Source: a virus (taxonomy: Duplodnaviria; Heunggongvirae; Uroviricota; Caudoviricetes). Taken from it: a stretch of DNA of 18,727 nucleotides. A model generated the notes under the pieces. That model was not told the DNA's origin. It searched no databases and saw only the letters and a program-made list of their open reading frames with translations. Positions 255-8,689 of this stretch are shown piece by piece (the first letter of the stretch is position 1; each line of letters begins with the position of its first letter). A program made the translations under genes and the position numbers. The stretch lies in the IMG/VR virus record IMGVR_UViG_2802429219_000002, one strand, 5' to 3'.

Positions 255-289
255 TATAATCATAATGTTGCAGCAAGGTGGTTATAATT
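255..289 (+). promoter_or_regulatory. Putative sigma70 -10 elements and Shine-Dalgarno region upstream of trkG
   Basis: Two perfect TATAAT hexamers (255-260 and 284-289) and AAGGTGG (275-281) in an AT-rich leader. No convincing -35 at canonical spacing, so the promoter call is weak. Confidence 0.25.
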
Positions 290-305
290 GAAAGAATATT
301 TAGAT

Positions 306-1763
306 ATGAATACATCTCATGTAAGAGTTGTTACTCATATGTGTGGGTTCCTGGTTTGGCTCTATAGTCTTTCAATGTTGCCACCAATGGTTGTAGCATT
401 GTTTTATAAAGAAAAAAGCCTGTTCGTTTTCTTTATAACTTTCGTTATATTTTTTTGCATTGGTGGCGGAGCGTGGTATACAACTAAGAAATCTGGTATT
501 CAATTACGTACCCGTGATGGGTTTATTATAATTGTAATGTTTTGGATTTTGTTTTCTGTTATTAGTGCATTCCCTTTATGGATTGACTCAGAACTTAATT
601 TAACGTTTATTGATGCTCTATTTGAAGGGGTTTCTGGAATAACAACAACAGGAGCAACTGTAATTGATGATGTTAGTTCATTACCTCGGGCATATTTGTA
701 CTATCGGTCACAGTTAAATTTTATAGGTGGCTTAGGAGTTATTGTTCTGGCGGTTGCTGTATTGCCATTATTGGGTATTGGTGGTGCAAAGCTTTATCAG
801 TCAGAAATGCCAGGGCCATTTAAGGATGACAAACTTACTCCCCGCCTGGCCGATACGTCACGGACACTTTGGATAACTTATTCTTTATTAGGTATTGCTT
901 GTATTGTCTGTTATAGACTTGCAGGAATGCCTTTGTTTGATGCTATTTGTCACGGGATATCCACAGTTTCGCTTGGTGGTTTCTCAACTCATAGCGAGAG
1001 TATCGGATATTTTAATAACTATTTGGTTGAGCTGGTGGCTGGTTCTTTTTCCCTGCTATCGGCTTTCAACTTCACCCTTTGGTATATTGTTATTAGCAGG
1101 AAAACGTTAAAACCTTTAATCAGAGATATTGAACTTCGTTTCTTTCTGTTAATAGCCTTAGGGGTGATCATTGTTACCTCTTTCCAGGTCTGGCATATAG
1201 GTATGTATGACTTGCCTGGAAGTTTTATTCATTCGTTTTTTCTTGCCAGCTCCATGCTCACTGATAATGGTTTAGCTACGCAGGATTATGCAAACTGGCC
1301 CACGCACACGATAGTGTTTTTGCTGTTGTCAAGTTTCTTTGGGGGATGTATAGGTTCAACTTGTGGTGGAATTAAGTCACTTCGATTTCTTATACTTTTC
1401 AAACAAAGCAAACACGAGATAAACCAGCTTTCTCATCCCAGAGCGTTGTTGAGTGTAAATGTAGGAGGGAAGATAGTTACAGATCGTGTAATGAGGTCTG
1501 TATGGAGTTTCTTTTTTCTTTATACTCTCTTCACGGTGTTTTTTATACTGGTGTTAAATGGTATGGGATATGATTTTCTTACATCATTTGCAACAGTGGC
1601 TGCATGTATTAATAATATGGGATTAGGTTTTGGGGCTACTGCATCGTCATTCGGAGTGCTTAATGACATTGCAAAATATTTAATGTGCATAGCTATGATT
1701 CTTGGCCGCCTTGAAATTTATCCTGTTATTATATTGTTTTCAGGTTTTTTTTGGCGCTCCTAA
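306..1763 (+). CDS. trkG: Trk-system K+ uptake membrane protein TrkG (TrkH/KtrB superfamily)
   Basis: 485-aa polytopic membrane protein starting MNTSHVRVVTHMCGFLVWLYSL..., with repeated glycine-rich selectivity-filter-like segments (GITTTGATV, GGLGVIV, SLGGFSTHS, NMGLGFGA). Matches E. coli TrkG from memory, the Rac-prophage paralogue of trkH. The ORF track starts at TTG 288 (AAGGTGG lies 6 nt upstream); ATG 306 gives the recalled 485-aa length. Markedly AT-rich compared with the flanking phage genes. Confidence 0.9.
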   Translation: MNTSHVRVVTHMCGFLVWLYSLSMLPPMVVALFYKEKSLFVFFITFVIFFCIGGGAWYTTKKSGIQLRTRDGFIIIVMFWILFSVISAFPLWIDSELNLTFIDALFEGVSGITTTGATVIDDVSSLPRAYLYYRSQLNFIGGLGVIVLAVAVLPLLGIGGAKLYQSEMPGPFKDDKLTPRLADTSRTLWITYSLLGIACIVCYRLAGMPLFDAICHGISTVSLGGFSTHSESIGYFNNYLVELVAGSFSLLSAFNFTLWYIVISRKTLKPLIRDIELRFFLLIALGVIIVTSFQVWHIGMYDLPGSFIHSFFLASSMLTDNGLATQDYANWPTHTIVFLLLSSFFGGCIGSTCGGIKSLRFLILFKQSKHEINQLSHPRALLSVNVGGKIVTDRVMRSVWSFFFLYTLFTVFFILVLNGMGYDFLTSFATVAACINNMGLGFGATASSFGVLNDIAKYLMCIAMILGRLEIYPVIILFSGFFWRS

Positions 1764-1900: not shown

Positions 1901-2692
1901 ATGAGCGAGAAATTGAAGATCGTCTATCGCCCTTTACAAGAACTGTCTCCGTATGCACACAACGCCAGGACACACAGCCCTGAGCAGGTGGCACAACTGG
2001 TAGAAAGCATTAAGCAATTCGGCTGGACTAATCCGGTGCTGATTGATGAAAAGGGCGAAATTATTGCTGGTCACGGTCGCGTTATGGCGGCTGAAGTGCT
2101 CAAAATGGATTCCATTCCGGTCATCGTTCTGTCTGGTTTGATGGATGATCAGAAAAAGGCGTACCGCCTGGCAGATAATCGCCTGCCGATGAATGCTGGC
2201 TGGGATGAAGATCTGTTACGGATGGAGCTGTCGGACCTAATCAATGCTGATTTTGATGTCTCCCTGACAGGCTTCAGCCCGACAGAAATTGATGAACTGT
2301 TGACGGATGTTTTGCCCGGTACAGGAAATGAGGAGGAGCCGTATACGACGAAAATTGATACGCCTGTTTATGAGCCGTCGGGCGGTAAACCGGATATCAG
2401 TGAACTGTACGACGATACGAAAACACAGGAGCTGATCAGCCGGATACGTTCGGCGTCCCTTGAGCCTGATATTGAGAAATTCCTCCTGTGTGCGGCAGAA
2501 CGTCACACGGTGTTTAATTTCAGCAGAATTGCGGACTATTACGCTCACGCCCCCGCTGAAATTCAGTGTTTTTTCGAGGAGTCGGCGCTGGTGATCATTG
2601 ATTATCAGCAGGCTATTGAAAATGGATTTGTCCGGATGACGCAGCGCATGGTGGAGATCATGCATGGTGGTGAGGAGGAGGAATATGCGTGA
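1901..2692 (+). CDS. ParB-like nuclease domain (ParB N-terminal/sulfiredoxin fold) protein with uncharacterised C-terminal region
   Basis: 263-aa ORF. The N-terminus carries the ParB signature: SPYAHNARTHSPEQVAQLVESIKQFGWTNPVLIDEKGEIIAGHGRVMAAEVLKMDSIPVIVL (box II-like IIAGHGR, IPVIV strand). The C-terminus ends in an acidic tail, GGEEEEYA. Sits where I recall ynaK in K-12 Rac (unverified). Confidence 0.8.
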   Translation: MSEKLKIVYRPLQELSPYAHNARTHSPEQVAQLVESIKQFGWTNPVLIDEKGEIIAGHGRVMAAEVLKMDSIPVIVLSGLMDDQKKAYRLADNRLPMNAGWDEDLLRMELSDLINADFDVSLTGFSPTEIDELLTDVLPGTGNEEEPYTTKIDTPVYEPSGGKPDISELYDDTKTQELISRIRSASLEPDIEKFLLCAAERHTVFNFSRIADYYAHAPAEIQCFFEESALVIIDYQQAIENGFVRMTQRMVEIMHGGEEEEYA

Positions 2693-3617
2693 TGATTTTT
2701 GCGCCTTTATTCTGACTCACGGGCGACCGGACAAAGTTCTGACTTACCGGACGTTGCGTCGTGCTGGCTATACCGGGAAAATTTTTATCGTTGTTGATGA
2801 TGAAGATAAGACACGGCATCAGTACATGGCTGAATTTGGTGAACAGGTGCTGGTGTTTTCCAAAGCCGATATCGCCAGTCGTTTTGACGAAGCCGATAAT
2901 TTCGGTGACCGCCGCTCAATTTTTTACGCCCGTAATGCCTGTTTCGACCTGGCAAAACTGGTCGGGTGTAAATACTTCATTCAGCTCGATGATGATTATC
3001 ACGAGTTCCAGTTTCGGGTGGATCGCAACTATGACCAGGCCTATTTTCCGATAAGGAAACTGGATGCGATCCTTTCTGAAATGCTGGCGTACTACGAATC
3101 AATACCTGCTCTTTCCATCGCTATGTCGCAGGGCGGGGATTTTCTTGGTGACAATGGCGGCCATGCTTCGTGGGTGAAACGCAAGGCAATGAACAGCTTT
3201 ATCTGTTCGGTTGATCGACCGTTCTCATTCATGGGGCGCATTAACGAGGATGTGAATACGTACACGAATCTCGGTCGCTGTGGTGAATTGTTTATGACGA
3301 TCGGTGCTGTCCAGTTAGGGCAGAAACAGACGCAGAAAAACAGCGGCGGAATGACCGAGCTGTATCTGGATTCCGGAACCTACGTTAAAAGTTTTTACTC
3401 CGTCATGTATGCGCCGTCGTGCGTAAAAATCTCACTGATGGGTGCCAGCCATAAACGCATTCACCATCAGGTCACCAGGAACAACGCTGCAGTAAAAATC
3501 CTTCACGAAAAATACAGGAAGAAGACACCCTGCATATCAATAGGGGTGACAAATGATTCCGTATTCGAAAGTCGAGTCTCTGGCAGCGTGCCGGATGACT
3601 GCACAACAAATCGCTGA
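2685..3617 (+). CDS. Hypothetical protein; possible GT-A-like nucleotide-sugar transferase fold (two DxD-like acidic motifs); function unknown
   Basis: Start ATG 2685 is preferred over the track's 2664 because GAGGAGGAGG (2672-2681) sits 4-6 nt upstream. Its start overlaps the ParB-like gene stop by 8 nt (ATGCGTGA), suggesting translational coupling. Hydrophobic strand + acidic motifs FILTHGRP, KIFIVVDDEDK and YFIQLDDDYHEF resemble a GT-A/Rossmann-like arrangement; this is a guess by eye only. Confidence 0.65.
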   Translation: MRDDFCAFILTHGRPDKVLTYRTLRRAGYTGKIFIVVDDEDKTRHQYMAEFGEQVLVFSKADIASRFDEADNFGDRRSIFYARNACFDLAKLVGCKYFIQLDDDYHEFQFRVDRNYDQAYFPIRKLDAILSEMLAYYESIPALSIAMSQGGDFLGDNGGHASWVKRKAMNSFICSVDRPFSFMGRINEDVNTYTNLGRCGELFMTIGAVQLGQKQTQKNSGGMTELYLDSGTYVKSFYSVMYAPSCVKISLMGASHKRIHHQVTRNNAAVKILHEKYRKKTPCISIGVTNDSVFESRVSGSVPDDCTTNR

Positions 3618-3804
3618 CGTTCTGGATGTTGATCTGAACCGACTGAAAGAAAATCGGGAAGCAATGACAGATTTTTATGCGGCCATCCGTAAGGGCAGAG
3701 CGAAAGGTGAAGCCGAGTTACGAGCGGCATTGTTTAAGCTTGCCAGAAAAGGGGATGCCTTTGCTCTGCGCGAACTACTCAGGGTGGATAAAAATCAGGA
3801 CTAA
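3553..3804 (+). CDS. Small (83 aa) HTH-like protein of unknown function immediately upstream of the small terminase gene
   Basis: SD-like AGGGGTGA 3542-3549 then ATG 3553. Overlaps the 3' end of the previous CDS by 65 nt in another frame. Helix-turn-helix-like segment MTAQQIADVLDVDLNRLKEN followed by a basic helix. Stop TAA 3802-3804 lies 3 nt before the terS ATG. Confidence 0.5.
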   Translation: MIPYSKVESLAACRMTAQQIADVLDVDLNRLKENREAMTDFYAAIRKGRAKGEAELRAALFKLARKGDAFALRELLRVDKNQD

Positions 3805-3807
3805 CTG

Positions 3808-4902
3808 ATGAGCAGACCGGACTGGGGGGCGTTGCAGCAGGAGTATATTGCTGAATACACCCGCTCCGGTATATCTCCGGTGGCATGGTGTGAAGCAAGG
3901 GGACTGAATTACGCAACAGCCCGTCGTTACATCAAAAAACCTCCGAAAAATGCGCAGACAGAAATGCGCAAAACTGCGCAAAAAAGTGCGCAGAAAAAAT
4001 CTGCGCAGACTGCACAAAAGCGGAACGAAAAATCTCAGGAAAAAAAGCCAGTATTCGATGCGGGCCTGAATGAGGGCGACGCGGAGGAATTTTCGTTCTG
4101 TCCCGATGAATTCGGCATTTCTGACCAGCAGGCTAAGTTTGCGATGCTTGTTGCTCAGGGGAAAAAGCCGACAGAGGCGTACCGACTAGCCGGTTATGAG
4201 GGGCAAGGTGCGACAGCTAACAGCAACGCCAGTCGTATGCTTAGAAATGCCAGGGTTTTTCGCGCTATCAGCTACTTCCGCAATCAGTACCAGAAACGCT
4301 ATACCGCAGACCTGGATTTACTGGTGAGTCAGTTGATGGCCATTGTCCTGGCCGACCCCAATCAGCTTGCACAATTTCGCCGTGTTAACTGCCGTTATTG
4401 CTGGGGCGAGAATCATCTCTACCAGTGGCGCGATATAGCAGAATTCGACAAGGCAGCGGCGCAGGCTTCCAGAGATGGCAAACCCGAACCGGAATATGGA
4501 GGCCTCGGCTTTGTTGATAACGCCATACCCAATCCGGACTGCCCGAAGTGCTGCGGTGAGGGAACGGGACAGCTTTATATGGCTGATACCACTCTGCTTG
4601 ATGGGGATGCGCGGCAATTATATGCAGGGGCAAAACTCGGAAAATTCGGCGTTGAGATCCTGCTGGAGGATAAGGCTGCCGCCCGGCGTGAATTGTTGCG
4701 TTTGCTTTCTGCTGGCGGGGCTTTATGTGCAGATAAGCGGCTACAGGAACTGGAAATTGAACGACGCAGAATGGAAAACCAGAAGCTGCGCAAAGAGATC
4801 GAAACGGTGGAAGATAATGAACATCCCCAGCCTGTGGCGATCAATATTAATGTGGTTGATGCCAGAGTAAGGAGTGATGAAGATGATCTCTCCGACGCTT
4901 AA
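3808..4902 (+). CDS. Terminase small subunit (Terminase_2-like) with N-terminal HTH, lysine-rich repeat linker and Cys4 zinc-ribbon-like cluster
   Basis: N-terminal HTH (ISPVAWCEARGLNYATARRYI), Terminase_2-like segment (KPTEAYRLAGYEGQGATANSNASRMLRNARVFRAI), cysteines CRYC ... CPKCC, coiled-coil C-terminus. Lies directly upstream of and overlapping the large terminase gene. Unusually long (364 aa) for a TerS. Confidence 0.7.
   Translation: MSRPDWGALQQEYIAEYTRSGISPVAWCEARGLNYATARRYIKKPPKNAQTEMRKTAQKSAQKKSAQTAQKRNEKSQEKKPVFDAGLNEGDAEEFSFCPDEFGISDQQAKFAMLVAQGKKPTEAYRLAGYEGQGATANSNASRMLRNARVFRAISYFRNQYQKRYTADLDLLVSQLMAIVLADPNQLAQFRRVNCRYCWGENHLYQWRDIAEFDKAAAQASRDGKPEPEYGGLGFVDNAIPNPDCPKCCGEGTGQLYMADTTLLDGDARQLYAGAKLGKFGVEILLEDKAAARRELLRLLSAGGALCADKRLQELEIERRRMENQKLRKEIETVEDNEHPQPVAININVVDARVRSDEDDLSDA
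3951..4016 (+). repeat. Array of five TGCGCA palindromic hexamers (plus one TGCACA variant) separated by A-tracts, inside the terS coding region; candidate pac/terminase recognition site
   Basis: TGCGCA at 3951, 3965, 3975, 3987 and 4002; TGCACA at 4011. Start-to-start spacings are 14, 10, 12, 15 and 9 bp, each hexamer flanked by A3-A6 runs. The same DNA encodes the peptide repeat KNAQTEMRKTAQKSAQKKSAQTAQKR. Confidence 0.6.
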
Positions 4903-6184
4903 TGTGCCTCAGGCGCGATTTCTTTCAATGCCCCATAAATTTAAAGCCTATATTGCTGGTTTTGGCTCGGGCAAAACATGGGTTGGGTGTGGCGGCATAT
5001 GCAAGGGGATTTGGGAGCATCCAGGTATAAATCAGGGATATTTTGCGCCAACGTATCCCCAAATTCGCGATATTTTTTACCCTACAGTGGAAGAAGTTGC
5101 TGCTGACTGGGGATTGAACGTAAAAATTAATGAGGGAAATAAAGAGGTTCACTTTTATTACGGACGCCAGTATCGGGGAACCACTATCTGCAGATCGATG
5201 GAGAAGCCACAAACGATCGTCGGTTTCAAAATTGGTAATGCGCTGGTGGATGAACTGGACATTTTGCCGAAGGAAAAAGCCAGAACGGCGTGGCGCAAGA
5301 TAATTGCGCGTATGCGTTATAAGATTGATGGACTTCGCAACGGTATTGACGTTACAACCACGCCGGAAGGATTCAAATTTGTCTACGAGCAGTTTGTTAA
5401 AGCCGTGCGTGAAAAAACAGAGCTGGCCTCACTGTATGGTCTGGTGCAGGCATCTACTTTCGATAATGAAAAGAACCTGCCAGCAGATTACATTCCTTCG
5501 CTTCTTGAATCATACCCTCCAGAGCTGATTAAAGCCTATCTTCGAGGACAGTTTACTAACCTGACAAGTGGTACTGTTTACCATCAGTTTGACCGGAAAC
5601 TGAATAATTGCGAAGAAGTGGAGCAGCCAGGGGAGCCGATTTATATTGGGATGGATTTTAACGTTGGAAAGATGGCGGGGATCGTCCATGTGCTGCGTTT
5701 GGGGCTTCCATGTGCGGTAACTGAAATCATCAATGCCTACGATACGCCGGATATGATCCGCATCATTAAAGAACGCTTCTGGCTGTATGACGGGAATGAT
5801 TACCGGAAAGTGAGGGAGATTTATATTTATCCAGATGCTTCCGGAGATTCCAGAAAATCAAGTAACGCAAGTACGACGGATATAGCCCAGCTTAAGCAGG
5901 CTGGTTTTAACGTTGTGGTGAACAGCTCGAACCCGCCAGTAAAAGATCGCGTTAACTCAATGAATGCAATGTTCTGCAATGCCAATGGTGAGCGTCGCTA
6001 TAAAGTTAATGTGAAGCGTTGTCCGGTATATGCCGAATCTCTGGAGCAACAGGTCTGGGATGATAAGGGGGAGCCTGATAAAAAATCTGGCAATGATCAC
6101 CCGAATGATGCCGGAGGTTATTTCATCGTTAAGCAATTCCCTATTGTCAAACCGACCGGAAGAGTCACATCACTTCGGATTTAA
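4883..6184 (+). CDS. Terminase large subunit (ATPase/nuclease)
   Basis: Walker A-like GFGSGKT near the N-terminus, ~434 aa, positioned between TerS and portal. Start is ambiguous (GTG 4874, ATG 4877, ATG 4883); AAGGAG at 4869-4874 favours ATG 4883. Overlaps the terS 3' end. Confidence 0.85.
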   Translation: MISPTLNVPQARFLSMPHKFKAYIAGFGSGKTWVGCGGICKGIWEHPGINQGYFAPTYPQIRDIFYPTVEEVAADWGLNVKINEGNKEVHFYYGRQYRGTTICRSMEKPQTIVGFKIGNALVDELDILPKEKARTAWRKIIARMRYKIDGLRNGIDVTTTPEGFKFVYEQFVKAVREKTELASLYGLVQASTFDNEKNLPADYIPSLLESYPPELIKAYLRGQFTNLTSGTVYHQFDRKLNNCEEVEQPGEPIYIGMDFNVGKMAGIVHVLRLGLPCAVTEIINAYDTPDMIRIIKERFWLYDGNDYRKVREIYIYPDASGDSRKSSNASTTDIAQLKQAGFNVVVNSSNPPVKDRVNSMNAMFCNANGERRYKVNVKRCPVYAESLEQQVWDDKGEPDKKSGNDHPNDAGGYFIVKQFPIVKPTGRVTSLRI

Positions 6185-6186
6185 TT

Positions 6187-7593
6187 ATGGCTGATATATC
6201 AACACCCAACCTCGACTATAACGATATGCTGGAGGCGTGGGATATTAACGACGCATTGATGGGCGGTACGCTTGAAATGCGCAGGCAGGGGGAAAATTAT
6301 CTCCCCAAATGGCCTAATGAAGATGAAGACGCTTATAAAAAACGCCTGTCTGTGGCTACGCTACTTCCTGTGTATGAAGAAAGCATCAAACAAAATATTG
6401 GGCGCATATTTGCAGAGCCGACAGTATTGAGTGAGGAAACGCCGGAAAAAATCAGGGAATATGCAGAAAATATCGACATGGAGGGGAGCCGACTGGATGT
6501 GTGGGCGCAGCAATTTTTCAGTCTCGCATTTCAGTATGGTGTGGCACATGCGCTGGTGGACTATCCACGAACGGATATGAAAGAGATTCGGACAAAAGCC
6601 GATGAAAACGCGGCCGGTGGTCGCCCGTACGTTACGATGCTGAATCCACGCCAGGTTATTGGATGGAAATCGAAAGTTGAAAAAGGGAAAGTTGTTCTCA
6701 CTGATTTGCGTATAAAAGAGGTCATCATTATTGATGGTGATGATTTCGGGCAGAAGAAGGTGGAGCAGATCCGCCATATTATGCCCCGTCGAGTAGAAAT
6801 TTATCGACGCAGCGAAGGTACTAATGGCGAATCTGTCTGGATGCTTCATGAGTCATGGAATACCAGCCGTGATGATATTCCTCTGGTAACACTGTATACG
6901 AAGAAAACAGGGTTTATGCGTGGTACACCGCCATTGCTTAATCTTGGCTTGCTGAATATCAAGCACTGGCAAAGCCAGAGCGAGCAGGACAATATTCTTC
7001 ATGTTGCCCGCGTTCCATTGCTGGTGGCCTACGGGCTGGACAGGAATGAAGAACTGACGGTTGGTGCATCCACCGCTACGATTTTTGAGGACAGAACAAA
7101 AAATGGCCTCGAATATGTTGAACATAGTGGCGCAGCGATAGAATCTGGCGAAACATCACTTGAGAAGCTGGAAAATCAGATGCGTCATGCCGGTGCTAAA
7201 CTTCTGCGGGCTGAAAATACATCCACCAAATCTGTTGATCAGACTAATGAAGAGCGGATGCAGGAACACTCGCCGCTTTATACAATGGCGAACTCCCTCG
7301 AAGATGCCCTCGATAATATTCTCCAGATAATGGCGGAATGGAGCGGAGAGAGTTGCGGTGGCAATGTGGATGTGCGCACTGAACTGGATGTATCTGCCCA
7401 GGTGTTTGACTCATCCTCCGCGCTGGCTGTTCAGTCATTGCGTCAGGGCGGTGATATACGTCAGATTGATGCGGTTCGGGTGTTGCAGGCGTTGAAATTT
7501 ATCGATCAGGATTCCCGTCCAGAGGAAGTGATCGATGAATTAAAAAATCAGAGTGTAATGCTGATGGAAATCAATGATGCAAACCGTGAATGA
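6187..7593 (+). CDS. Portal protein
   Basis: 468-aa ORF starting 3 nt after the TerL stop and followed by an F-like head morphogenesis gene; size and position are typical of a pac-phage portal. Confidence 0.8.
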   Translation: MADISTPNLDYNDMLEAWDINDALMGGTLEMRRQGENYLPKWPNEDEDAYKKRLSVATLLPVYEESIKQNIGRIFAEPTVLSEETPEKIREYAENIDMEGSRLDVWAQQFFSLAFQYGVAHALVDYPRTDMKEIRTKADENAAGGRPYVTMLNPRQVIGWKSKVEKGKVVLTDLRIKEVIIIDGDDFGQKKVEQIRHIMPRRVEIYRRSEGTNGESVWMLHESWNTSRDDIPLVTLYTKKTGFMRGTPPLLNLGLLNIKHWQSQSEQDNILHVARVPLLVAYGLDRNEELTVGASTATIFEDRTKNGLEYVEHSGAAIESGETSLEKLENQMRHAGAKLLRAENTSTKSVDQTNEERMQEHSPLYTMANSLEDALDNILQIMAEWSGESCGGNVDVRTELDVSAQVFDSSSALAVQSLRQGGDIRQIDAVRVLQALKFIDQDSRPEEVIDELKNQSVMLMEINDANRE

Positions 7594-8689
7594 ACGGCTG
7601 CGTGATGAATCAATTGCTCATGCAGTCTGGATATCCCGCTATAGCACTGGTGTGGCTGCCAGAATGGTGAAAATACTGAATGACAGCGATGCGGAGCTTA
7701 CAGCTCGCCTGCTGGTAGCACTGGACAGCCTCGATCCTGGTAGTTTTACCGTTACGCGCCTGGAGTCACTTCTGGCGAGTGTCAGAGAGGTTAACCGCGC
7801 TGCTATTAACAGCATGTTTACCAGTCTCTCCGGAGAGCTGAACGAGCTGGCAATTTATGAGGCTGGTTATCAGTTAAGTCTGTTTGATTCTCTGCTACCT
7901 GATTTTGTTGCTGATGTTCACCCTCTGGTTGGTATATCTTCTGATGCACTTTACGCCGCTGCAATGGCGCGACCATTCCAGGGACGACTGCTCAGTGAGT
8001 GGGCCTTGGATCTTGAGGCGGATCGGCTCAGACGCATAACAAATACGGTGCGTCAGGGTTTTTTGCTGGGGGATACCAATGAGCAGATCGCAAGAAAAAT
8101 TCGGGGACATGTCAGCAAGGGATTTCAGGATGGTGCATTGCAGATGAGCCGGGCTAATGCGGCCAGCATTGCAAAAACAGCGGTTGGACATCTTGCTGCT
8201 ACTGCCCGTGAGAGTTTTGCCAGCGCGAATAATGATTTGATTAAGGGTAAGCAATGGTTATCAACGCTTGATAATCGTACTACGCCACAATGTCGAATCA
8301 GGGATCGCCTCAAATATACGCTGGATAATAAACCTGTAGGTCACAGTGTGCCTTATTTGCATGGGCCGGGAAAAATTCATTTCTGCTGCCGCTCAACGGA
8401 AACGTTCATTCTGAAATCAGCGAAGGAACTGGGTATTGATGTTCGTGATATTTCCCCGGCTGAGCGGGCCAGCATGGATGGCGTGGTGGCCGGAGATACA
8501 ACCTACAGGGAATGGTTTTTGCGTCAGCCTTACACCAGACAAAAACAGATTGTGGGGGAAACCCGGGCAAAGCTGATTCGGGATGGCGGTATGTCGCCAG
8601 ATGAATTTTACACCGATAAAGGCGAATGGCTGACGCTGAAGCAACTCCGTGAGCGTGATGCACAGGTATTCAGAAAAGCAGGGATTTAA
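7574..8689 (+). CDS. Head morphogenesis protein (phage Mu F-like / SPP1 gp7-like minor head protein)
   Basis: 371 aa, overlaps the portal 3' end by 20 nt. Central region KGKQWLSTLDNRTTPQCRIRDRLKYTLDNKPVGHSVPYLHGPGKIHFCCRSTE resembles the Mu-F family core (recalled). Confidence 0.75.
   Translation: MMQTVNERLRDESIAHAVWISRYSTGVAARMVKILNDSDAELTARLLVALDSLDPGSFTVTRLESLLASVREVNRAAINSMFTSLSGELNELAIYEAGYQLSLFDSLLPDFVADVHPLVGISSDALYAAAMARPFQGRLLSEWALDLEADRLRRITNTVRQGFLLGDTNEQIARKIRGHVSKGFQDGALQMSRANAASIAKTAVGHLAATARESFASANNDLIKGKQWLSTLDNRTTPQCRIRDRLKYTLDNKPVGHSVPYLHGPGKIHFCCRSTETFILKSAKELGIDVRDISPAERASMDGVVAGDTTYREWFLRQPYTRQKQIVGETRAKLIRDGGMSPDEFYTDKGEWLTLKQLRERDAQVFRKAGI

Follow-up and report, generated by a model that had tools for sequence, protein, structure and literature searches.

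Little is understood of how a small terminase subunit chooses viral DNA for packaging, and mapped pac sites are few. The question is raised in a compact form by the stretch of DNA analyzed here, 18,727 nt of a tailed phage (IMG/VR record IMGVR_UViG_2802429219_000002; hereafter the window, with position 1 as its first letter), in which the gene for the small terminase subunit (terS, encoding TerS) carries a dense array of the hexamer TGCGCA. Does this array mark the DNA for packaging, and if so, which part of TerS reads it? We consider it likely, from the comparisons described below, that the array is the recognition part of a prophage pac site built on the plan of phage P1 and read by an N-terminal helix-turn-helix (HTH) domain of TerS. 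A pac site within terS had already been proposed for this locus, with the repeated hexamers of P1 as the analogy, from inspection of the letters alone (the sequence-only reading). That proposal now finds support in what sequence comparison establishes at this locus: the hexamers are conserved at the DNA level, their type co-varies with the recognition helix of the HTH, HTH and array are inherited together in the manner of a cassette, and the HTH aligns as a homologue of the N terminus of P1 PacA. Beyond that earlier finding, HTH and array appear to constitute a widespread, exchangeable specificity cassette that is also present in Shiga toxin (Stx) phages.

The clustering of the hexamers is far beyond chance. 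Five of the ten TGCGCA copies of the whole window are packed into 66 bp, TGCGCA is the sole hexamer in the window to reach five copies within such a span, and 200 first-order Markov simulations gave a maximum of three copies per 66 bp for any hexamer of at least three letters. The scan of positions and the simulations thus confirm the count of five TGCGCA and one TGCACA first noticed at 3945-4016. The array (3951-4016, or +144 to +209 nt within terS) begins 9 bp past the final codon of the N-terminal HTH domain and occupies DNA that encodes a linker, with start-to-start spacings of 14, 10, 12, 15, and 9 bp between its six hexamers; Tandem Repeats Finder also flags the region, with units of 10-36 bp. 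No second cluster was found in the window, where sites with at most one mismatch are not enriched downstream of the array, and GATC, which TGCGCA itself does not contain, is absent from 3940-4020.

The A-rich flanks described in the sequence-only reading are borne out across the family, in that the spacers between hexamers are 50-58% A in all lineages against a background of 26-34%. The spacing at helical turns and the bending by A-runs that it also envisaged do not stand. The period of A-tracts (AAA) in the window peaks at 11.5-12 bp, a power that none of 2,000 shuffles reached, and there is no signal at 10-11 bp, where 855 of 2,000 shuffles equaled the observed power; family-wide, hexamer spacing is irregular at 7-16 bp, with modes of 7, 9, 12, 14, and 16 bp. 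With an A-tract period of ~12 bp rather than ~10.5 bp and no signal at 10-11 bp, in-phase A-tract bending of the SPP1 type was therefore rejected. Separately, runs of A7 to A9 occur in the linker DNA of the window (4043-4049) and of relatives (e.g., L006 and L171), and many database copies of terS are truncated or frameshifted in the linker region (L027, L062, L107, L124; P0009-P0018); linker DNA with such runs may be a hotspot for indels.

To place the array in a wider context, IMG/VR and a set of genomes limited to one for each species were scanned with the HTH as query, which yielded 160 loci; from these, a representative set of 52 loci with less than 92% nucleotide identity, from ~60 genera, was drawn. 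Approximately 200 distinct related terS genes, from Enterobacterales, Vibrio, Aeromonas, Pasteurellaceae, and Stx phages, keep 4-10 hexamers in the same place, which in the representative set is concentrated at +120 to +210 nt from the ATG. The array is retained at this position even in phage relatives with only ~40% TerS identity.

The domain proposed to read these sites occupies the first 45 residues of TerS. An AlphaFold2 (AF2) model of residues 1-50 has a mean predicted local distance difference test score (pLDDT) of 84.6, with helices assigned by DSSP at 6-20, 24-30, and 35-38, and the third of these, running on through T-A-R39-R-Y-I-K-K, would be the recognition helix in this model. The full-length AF2 model, which is poor outside residues 1-45 and 99-160, was left out of the fold search. 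Pfam has no family over the N-terminal domain, and sequence searches of the PDB returned no solved homologue of this domain or of the large terminase subunit (TerL). Structural comparison of the N-terminal domain gave, at the top, mostly DNA-binding domains of the HTH type (IstA, DeoR, KorB, ParB, TetR, and Tc3), none of them significant. A query with the 46-residue protein against 90% clusters returned fragments only. The domain is single and N-terminal in most of the 150 representatives listed of 191 (E ≤0.001). As a side observation, some proteins of 198-565 residues carry an HTH-like motif (W..L...Q..SG.S...WC.E.GI...) at least four times in tandem, with four, six, and seven stretches matched in P0255, P0226, and P0170, respectively; these presumably resemble the HTHs of insertion-sequence helper proteins.

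A more informative relationship for this domain is that with phage P1. When a profile of 25 HTH sequences was compared with residues 1-60 of PacA, the PacA N terminus ([39 protein letters not shown]) aligned collinearly over 39 columns (hhalign probability of 93.3%, E 2.8e-7), which makes the two domains homologous. Hexamers of the form TGATCA/G are found in P1 pacA at +194, 201, 213, and 228 and again at +324, 336, and 347, in two reading frames, and the two clusters (+194 to +233 and +324 to +352) flank the cleavage sites given in the P1 record (+275 to +285; integration host factor [IHF] site, +256 to +268). Synonymous recoding of the P1 hexamers lowered P1 packaging ~9-fold (PMC10028697). 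It is conceivable that the TerS HTH binds the array in order to regulate, with the sites serving terS as an internal operator for autoregulation or as a roadblock, or controlling expression of terS and terL, and such a reading would share all of the evidence for recognition of the array by the HTH as well as the location of the sites near the 5' end of the gene's own coding region. We regard it as unlikely, as the homologous arrangement in P1 is a proven pac site and the domain invariably forms part of a terminase small subunit and is swapped among three TerS core families, as would be expected of a module for packaging specificity. To our knowledge, autoregulation of TerS through intragenic operators has not been described.

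If the HTH reads the array as part of a pac site, changes in its recognition helix could be accompanied by changes in the hexamer, and such co-variation is indeed found. In the representative set, TGCGCA arrays are present in 41 of 42 loci with an A-R-R-Y/H helix, and TGCGAA/TTCGCA arrays are present in all 10 with an A-K-R-Y helix (mean of 5.5 copies). The TGCGCA arrays have a mean of 5.0 copies within 210 nt of the end of the HTH, a density of 24 per kb where the flanks have 0.77 per kb. Counted as distinct sequences rather than as independent switches between R and K, an RRY or RRH helix goes with TGCGCA in 167 of 172, a KRY helix (K39) with TGCGAA in 25 of 25, and the RTR helix of 933W with GATCAT in 2 of 2; four of the five RRY/RRH exceptions are truncated or stop-interrupted copies of terS, the fifth being the intact gene L251. 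Between enterobacterial K-type HTHs and those of the R type, identity reaches 95%; one pair, L106 and L067, is 95% identical over 43 residues, differs only by T37S and R39K, and has fully switched arrays. Phages of Aeromonas and Vibrio (TGCGCA) and of Pasteurellaceae (TGCGAA) obey the same rule. In these alignments, residue 39 tracks base 5 of the hexamer, with R39 for TGCGCA and K39 for TGCGAA.

The same comparisons bear on whether the hexamers might instead be sites for another protein of host or phage, with the TerS HTH unrelated to them. The different hexamer that accompanies the R-R-Y helix of P1 PacA could be taken to favor this, and yet the hexamer type switches along with a single helix residue between otherwise 95% identical HTHs, and one rule holds in Enterobacterales, in Vibrio and Aeromonas, and in Pasteurellaceae despite their differing host factors. 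Moreover, replacement by an unrelated HTH brings a different array: TerS of Actinobacillus phage vB_Apl-pPE4 (L253 631-1722) has a core 77% identical to that of the window together with an unrelated N-terminal HTH, behind which its gene carries approximately eight (G)TGGAAA(C)/GTTTCCA hexamers. A separate binding protein is thus very unlikely.

Recognition of the array by the HTH would also account for the way in which the two travel together. The HTH is fused to three core families that BLASTP does not connect, namely, a long Terminase_2 family (including the window), a short Terminase_2-like family, and a 933W-like family without a Pfam match, and both R and K cassettes are found in each. 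Different cassettes occur on cores that are 85-93% identical (L143 versus L171, L069 versus L006, and GER2 versus 933W); the GER2 core, for example, is 93% identical to that of 933W but is joined to an R-R-Y helix and five TGCGCA. In the 933W-like Stx phages themselves, this HTH has the helix T-A-R-T-R-I-K, and behind it lie four (C/T)GATCAT repeats of exact 12-bp period (L173 1742-1783), each holding a Dam GATC as in P1 pac; distal TGCGCA relics are kept. In a set of Stx2a phages (L168 1501-1680) there are three repeat copies, and IS629, which lies directly after the array, cuts terS to 59 codons. As the PacA core has no detectable similarity to the three other cores and its HTH is homologous, P1 adds a fourth core to those that carry a cassette of this kind.

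Some core families have, in addition, a second cluster of two or three hexamers 150-200 bp past the main array, which is reminiscent of HEX4/HEX3 of P1. In the long Terminase_2 family this cluster (~200 bp downstream) switches with the HTH within a conserved core peptide, from IAQ-x-IAQ with TGCGCA to VAN-x-IAN with TGCGAA; in the short core family, the K-type phages L006 and L146 retain TGCGCA there. On balance, we lean toward the view that HTH and array form a self-contained, portable packaging-specificity cassette, which can be reset by one or a few helix residues and has moved among three or more unrelated TerS cores and P1 PacA in Enterobacterales, Vibrionales, Aeromonadales, and Pasteurellales, Stx phages included. 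An HTH followed by a site array in linker-coding DNA may even be a general layout among small terminases, judging from these alignments, although a wider search of other N-terminal HTH classes for the same design gave anecdotal cases only. Four copies of CTAAGC were observed directly behind the TerS HTH of L256 (about 1290-1560).

Exchange of this kind invites another explanation, in which the array is mainly a recombination junction whose microhomology promotes exchange between N termini and cores, without a role in binding. Mosaic junctions do fall at the array, a deletion fusion in the terS of Rac-SA53 ends inside it, the TGCGCA relics of 933W were left after it gained its GATCAT cassette, and some Stx2a phages carry an IS629 insertion immediately behind the array. 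Such an account leaves unexplained why the hexamers are exact across frames, why arrays are never mixed, and why they match a helix residue, so that we consider it highly improbable; the activity at the junction more plausibly follows from the repeats.

There remains the question, left undecided by the sequence-only reading, of whether selection acts on the DNA or on the peptide that it encodes. In the window, hexamers 1, 3, 4, and 5 and the TGCACA read nnT-GCG/GCA-CAn, that is, x-Ala-Gln, as in the repeated xAQK peptide noted earlier; this does not extend to the copy at 3965, which alone lies in a different frame and encodes Met-Arg-Lys. Relatives have (Leu/Met/Val)-Arg-x at this second hexamer, which are choices that preserve nTG CGC A. 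Klebsiella prophages place six TGCGCA across all three frames (Thr-Ala-Gln, Leu-Arg-Thr, and Lys-Cys-Ala), and 256 hexamer sites divide by frame into 182 xAQ/xAH, 60 (L/M/V)-R-x, and 14 CA, with frame-1 sites reading Leu, Met, or Val, then Arg (CGC), and then only Thr, Lys, Asn, Ser, Arg, or Ile. Similarly, TGCGAA encodes Ala-Asn, or inverted Asn-Ser-Gln, in Enterobacterales and in Pasteurellaceae reads Cys-Glu in 26 of 53 copies rather than Ala-Asn. Codon choice points the same way, as x-Ala-(Gln/His) in the linker is coded nnT-GCG-CAn in 135 of 148 cases (91%), against 14 of 125 (11%) elsewhere in the same loci (Fisher 8.5e-45), and hexamers persist in frameshifted terS pseudogenes such as L062. 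Within E. coli, variants carry 4-6 hexamers, with single losses and one unit deletion, and inspection of the alignment, with no statistical test, did not show hexamer positions to be clearly more conserved than spacers; the signal comes from the deep comparisons.

With hexamers in three frames, differing peptides, and fixed synonymous sites, these comparisons argue that selection acts on the DNA of the array, and they resolve the earlier question in favor of DNA. The linker peptide (xAQK and its variants) would then be largely a by-product of the DNA sites. The sequence-only reading had named, as the pattern that would count against a pac site, a peptide kept by relatives with changed codons and no DNA repeat; the opposite is seen, with the repeat kept and the peptide varying. 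The converse explanation, that the repeat is a by-product of a low-complexity linker in which selection holds the xAQK peptide or its disorder and charge and recent slippage or duplication produced the DNA identity, can draw on the disordered Lys/Gln/Ala-rich linker that the region encodes, on the repeat units of 10-36 bp, and on the variable copy number in E. coli with its unit deletion, but is effectively refuted by the frame and codon tests, by the hexamers retained in pseudogene L062, and by survival of the array at ~40% TerS identity.

Several observations nevertheless weigh against a P1-type pac site read by the TerS HTH. The HTH fold rests on a confident model, yet its structural matches are not significant, and the intact relative L251 has the HTH without an array. 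The R39 codon is only ~25 bp from the first hexamer, so that linkage could explain part of the co-variation, and P1 PacA has an R-R-Y helix and yet the hexamer TGATCA; a one-residue code therefore fails across the whole superfamily. Single hexamers have been lost in some E. coli variants, the spacing of 7-16 bp is irregular and not helical, and the window has one hexamer cluster, unlike the two of P1. A consensus scan of the window gave no convincing IHF site (a one-mismatch match at 4266-4278 is at chance level), and a literature search covering terminase and packaging, Rac, 933W, Stx, Yersinia, and enterohemorrhagic E. coli phages, with most subscription journals outside its reach, gave no description of the array or of mapped ends.

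Placed into a functional context, the preferred reading of a P1-type pac site suggests the following course, for which we infer physical binding, the avidity of the oligomer, the position of cleavage, and the direction of packaging in this phage. TerS would consist of an extra N-terminal HTH (residues 1-45) on a disordered tether of ~50 residues ahead of the Terminase_2 core, through which it would oligomerize. Several tethered HTHs of one TerS oligomer could then occupy several TGCGCA cooperatively, with Arg39 of the recognition helix tracking base 5 of each, and this would give high avidity for a single locus. TerL would be recruited to cut near the array, and headful packaging would run rightward through terL, the portal gene, and the head genes.

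Coordinates of the array, of the terS regions, and of neighboring genes are collected in Table 1.

Table 1. Features of the terS locus and its surroundings (window positions, except in the last three rows, which give second-cluster positions in relatives)
Feature	Position	Strand	Basis or remark
terS, small terminase subunit, 364 aa	3808..4902	+	Open reading frame (ORF); Pfam Terminase_2 E 2.5e-8; PHROG 51 E 1.7e-76; RefSeq annotation
N-terminal three-helix HTH domain, aa 1-45, proposed hexamer reader	3808..3942	+	AF2, hhalign
Arg39 codon, putative recognition helix (T-A-R39-R-Y-I-K)	3922..3924	+	Tracks hexamer base 5
Disordered Lys/Gln/Ala-rich linker, DNA holds array	3943..4092	+	AF2 pLDDT <50 at aa 52-93
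Hexamer 1	3951..3956		TGCGCA; frame AAT GCG CAG = Asn-Ala-Gln
Hexamer 2	3965..3970		TGCGCA; other frame, ATG CGC AAA = Met-Arg-Lys
Hexamer 3	3975..3980		TGCGCA; Thr-Ala-Gln
Hexamer 4	3987..3992		TGCGCA; Ser-Ala-Gln
Hexamer 5	4002..4007		TGCGCA; Ser-Ala-Gln
Hexamer 6	4011..4016		Degenerate TGCACA; x-Ala-Gln; the majority of other E. coli terS variants have TGCGCA here
Terminase_2 core (own HTH and presumed oligomerization region), with CxxC...CxxCC insertion	4171..4770	+	Pfam, AF2
terL, large terminase (nuclease/ATPase)	4874..6184	+	Pfam Terminase_6N, Terminase_6C
Portal, DUF4055	6187-7593		Pfam
Mu-F-like protein	7574-8689		Pfam
TrkH/trkG-like transporter	288-1763		Upstream of terS
ParB_N-domain protein	1901-2692		Upstream of terS
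TET-associated glycosyltransferase family protein (TAGT, PF20691)	2664-3617		Upstream of terS
83-aa ORF	3553-3804		Ends 4 bp before terS start; PHROG 309 "terminase small subunit" 145-218 of 319, E 8e-23; no Pfam match
Second cluster, L002	+359/+371/+397		
Second cluster, L161 and L166	+329/+341		
Second cluster, L069	+281/+293/+327		

The Terminase_2 (PF03592) match covers residues 122-321 of TerS at 35.1 bits, against a gathering cutoff of 26.1, and the HTH of the core itself (residues 99-160) has an AF2 pLDDT of 64-89. The cysteines of the CxxC ... CxxCC insertion within this core (window 4390-4554, TerS residues 195-249) are invariant; the insertion suggests a zinc ribbon by resemblance, with low AF2 confidence in this region. 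The Terminase_2-type TerS, the portal, and the Mu-F-like protein listed in the sequence-only reading were all recovered as Pfam matches, and the head module, with its Terminase_6 TerL, DUF4055 portal, and MuF-like protein, is probably of the type found in headful phages. The relatives of TerL are in K1H-like and Jersey-like siphoviruses, which we take to be headful phages. Upstream of terS, ParB_N and TAGT are encoded by overlapping genes that might act together in DNA modification, and the 83-aa ORF may be left over from, or accessory to, a TerS of another type.

From its content, which includes a trkG-like gene, and with Rac-SA53 as a relative, the element appears to be an intact prophage of the Rac family, carriage of trkG being presumably a hallmark of Rac. 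Over the first 303 nt of its terS (3808-4110), identity to E. coli 042 (chromosome near 1,555,400) is 100%, and 883 of 5,426 complete E. coli genomes match this segment at roughly ≥90% identity. The terS of Rac-SA53 (L001 1417-2445) is annotated as a deletion fusion with its junction at the array start and the HTH missing; hexamers 2 and 3 are intact there, and hexamers 4-6 have one substitution each. By alignment count, 3 of 7 substitutions in this HTH-less gene fall in hexamers, which is not significant and was not used.

Should the assignment as a P1-type pac site be correct, the family would offer a compact and readable case of packaging specificity, with an HTH of 45 residues, a 6-bp site, and natural, nearly isogenic switches between specificities. 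If HTH and array are indeed a portable cassette, the pac sites of a large proportion of gammaproteobacterial prophages, and with them the origins and directions of lateral transduction, could be read directly from sequence. Given the cassette in those 883 E. coli genomes and in 933W-like Stx phages, a pac site that can be read in this way would allow the starting points of headful packaging and of lateral transduction to be predicted in many pathogens. Such a site would also supply parts for retargeting the packaging of phages or phagemids, as has been done with P1 (PMC10028697). Finally, the protein sequence of the linker would be dictated by overlapping DNA sites, a clear example of a protein segment set by a DNA signal.

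Among known packaging systems, the R-sites of lambda cosB are several short TerS-binding elements beside terS that are read by the N-terminal winged HTH of gpNu1. Lambda is a cos system with IHF-assisted bending, and its sites lie upstream of Nu1, outside the coding sequence; gpNu1 and the TerS described here also differ in the fold family of the DNA-binding domain. The pac sites of the headful temperate enterobacterial phages P22 and Sf6 lie inside terS (gene 3 and gene 1, respectively), and among relatives the type of TerS varies together with the type of pac. P22 has no hexamer array but one asymmetric pac site of ~22 bp, and, as far as we know, TerS of P22 and Sf6 lacks the present N-terminal domain.

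For SPP1, pac (pacL, pacC, and pacR) and G1P are described by multiple TerS contacts overlapping terS, on the SF6-type model in which TerS wraps DNA. The window shares with it an A-rich site and an SPP1-like head module (portal and MuF-like protein), and would share the multiple TerS contacts and the display of HTHs on an oligomer. The SPP1 boxes, however, do not repeat one hexamer in tandem, bending requires A-tracts in phase with the helix where the period here is ~12 bp, and the proposed reader in the window is an additional HTH, held on a long tether, besides the HTH of Terminase_2.

The closest likeness is with P1. In both, an array of 6-bp elements lies toward the 5' end of the very gene that encodes the recognition subunit (pacA +194 to +352; terS +144 to +209), starts soon after the region encoding the N-terminal HTH, and uses at least two frames, so that the hexamers dictate an odd, low-complexity peptide; the 933W variant further shares with P1 hexamers bearing GATC and hence Dam sites. 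The window differs in that TGCGCA contains no GATC, and Dam gating is therefore impossible, in having a single cluster of six where P1 has four and three (HEX4/HEX3) flanking the cut, in the IHF site that P1 has and the consensus scan did not find here, and in combining a Terminase_2 core and a Terminase_6-type TerL in place of the PacA core and PacB. The element is thus best filed with the P1-type pac design, as a version with TGCGCA, a single cluster, no Dam control, and a Terminase_2 core.

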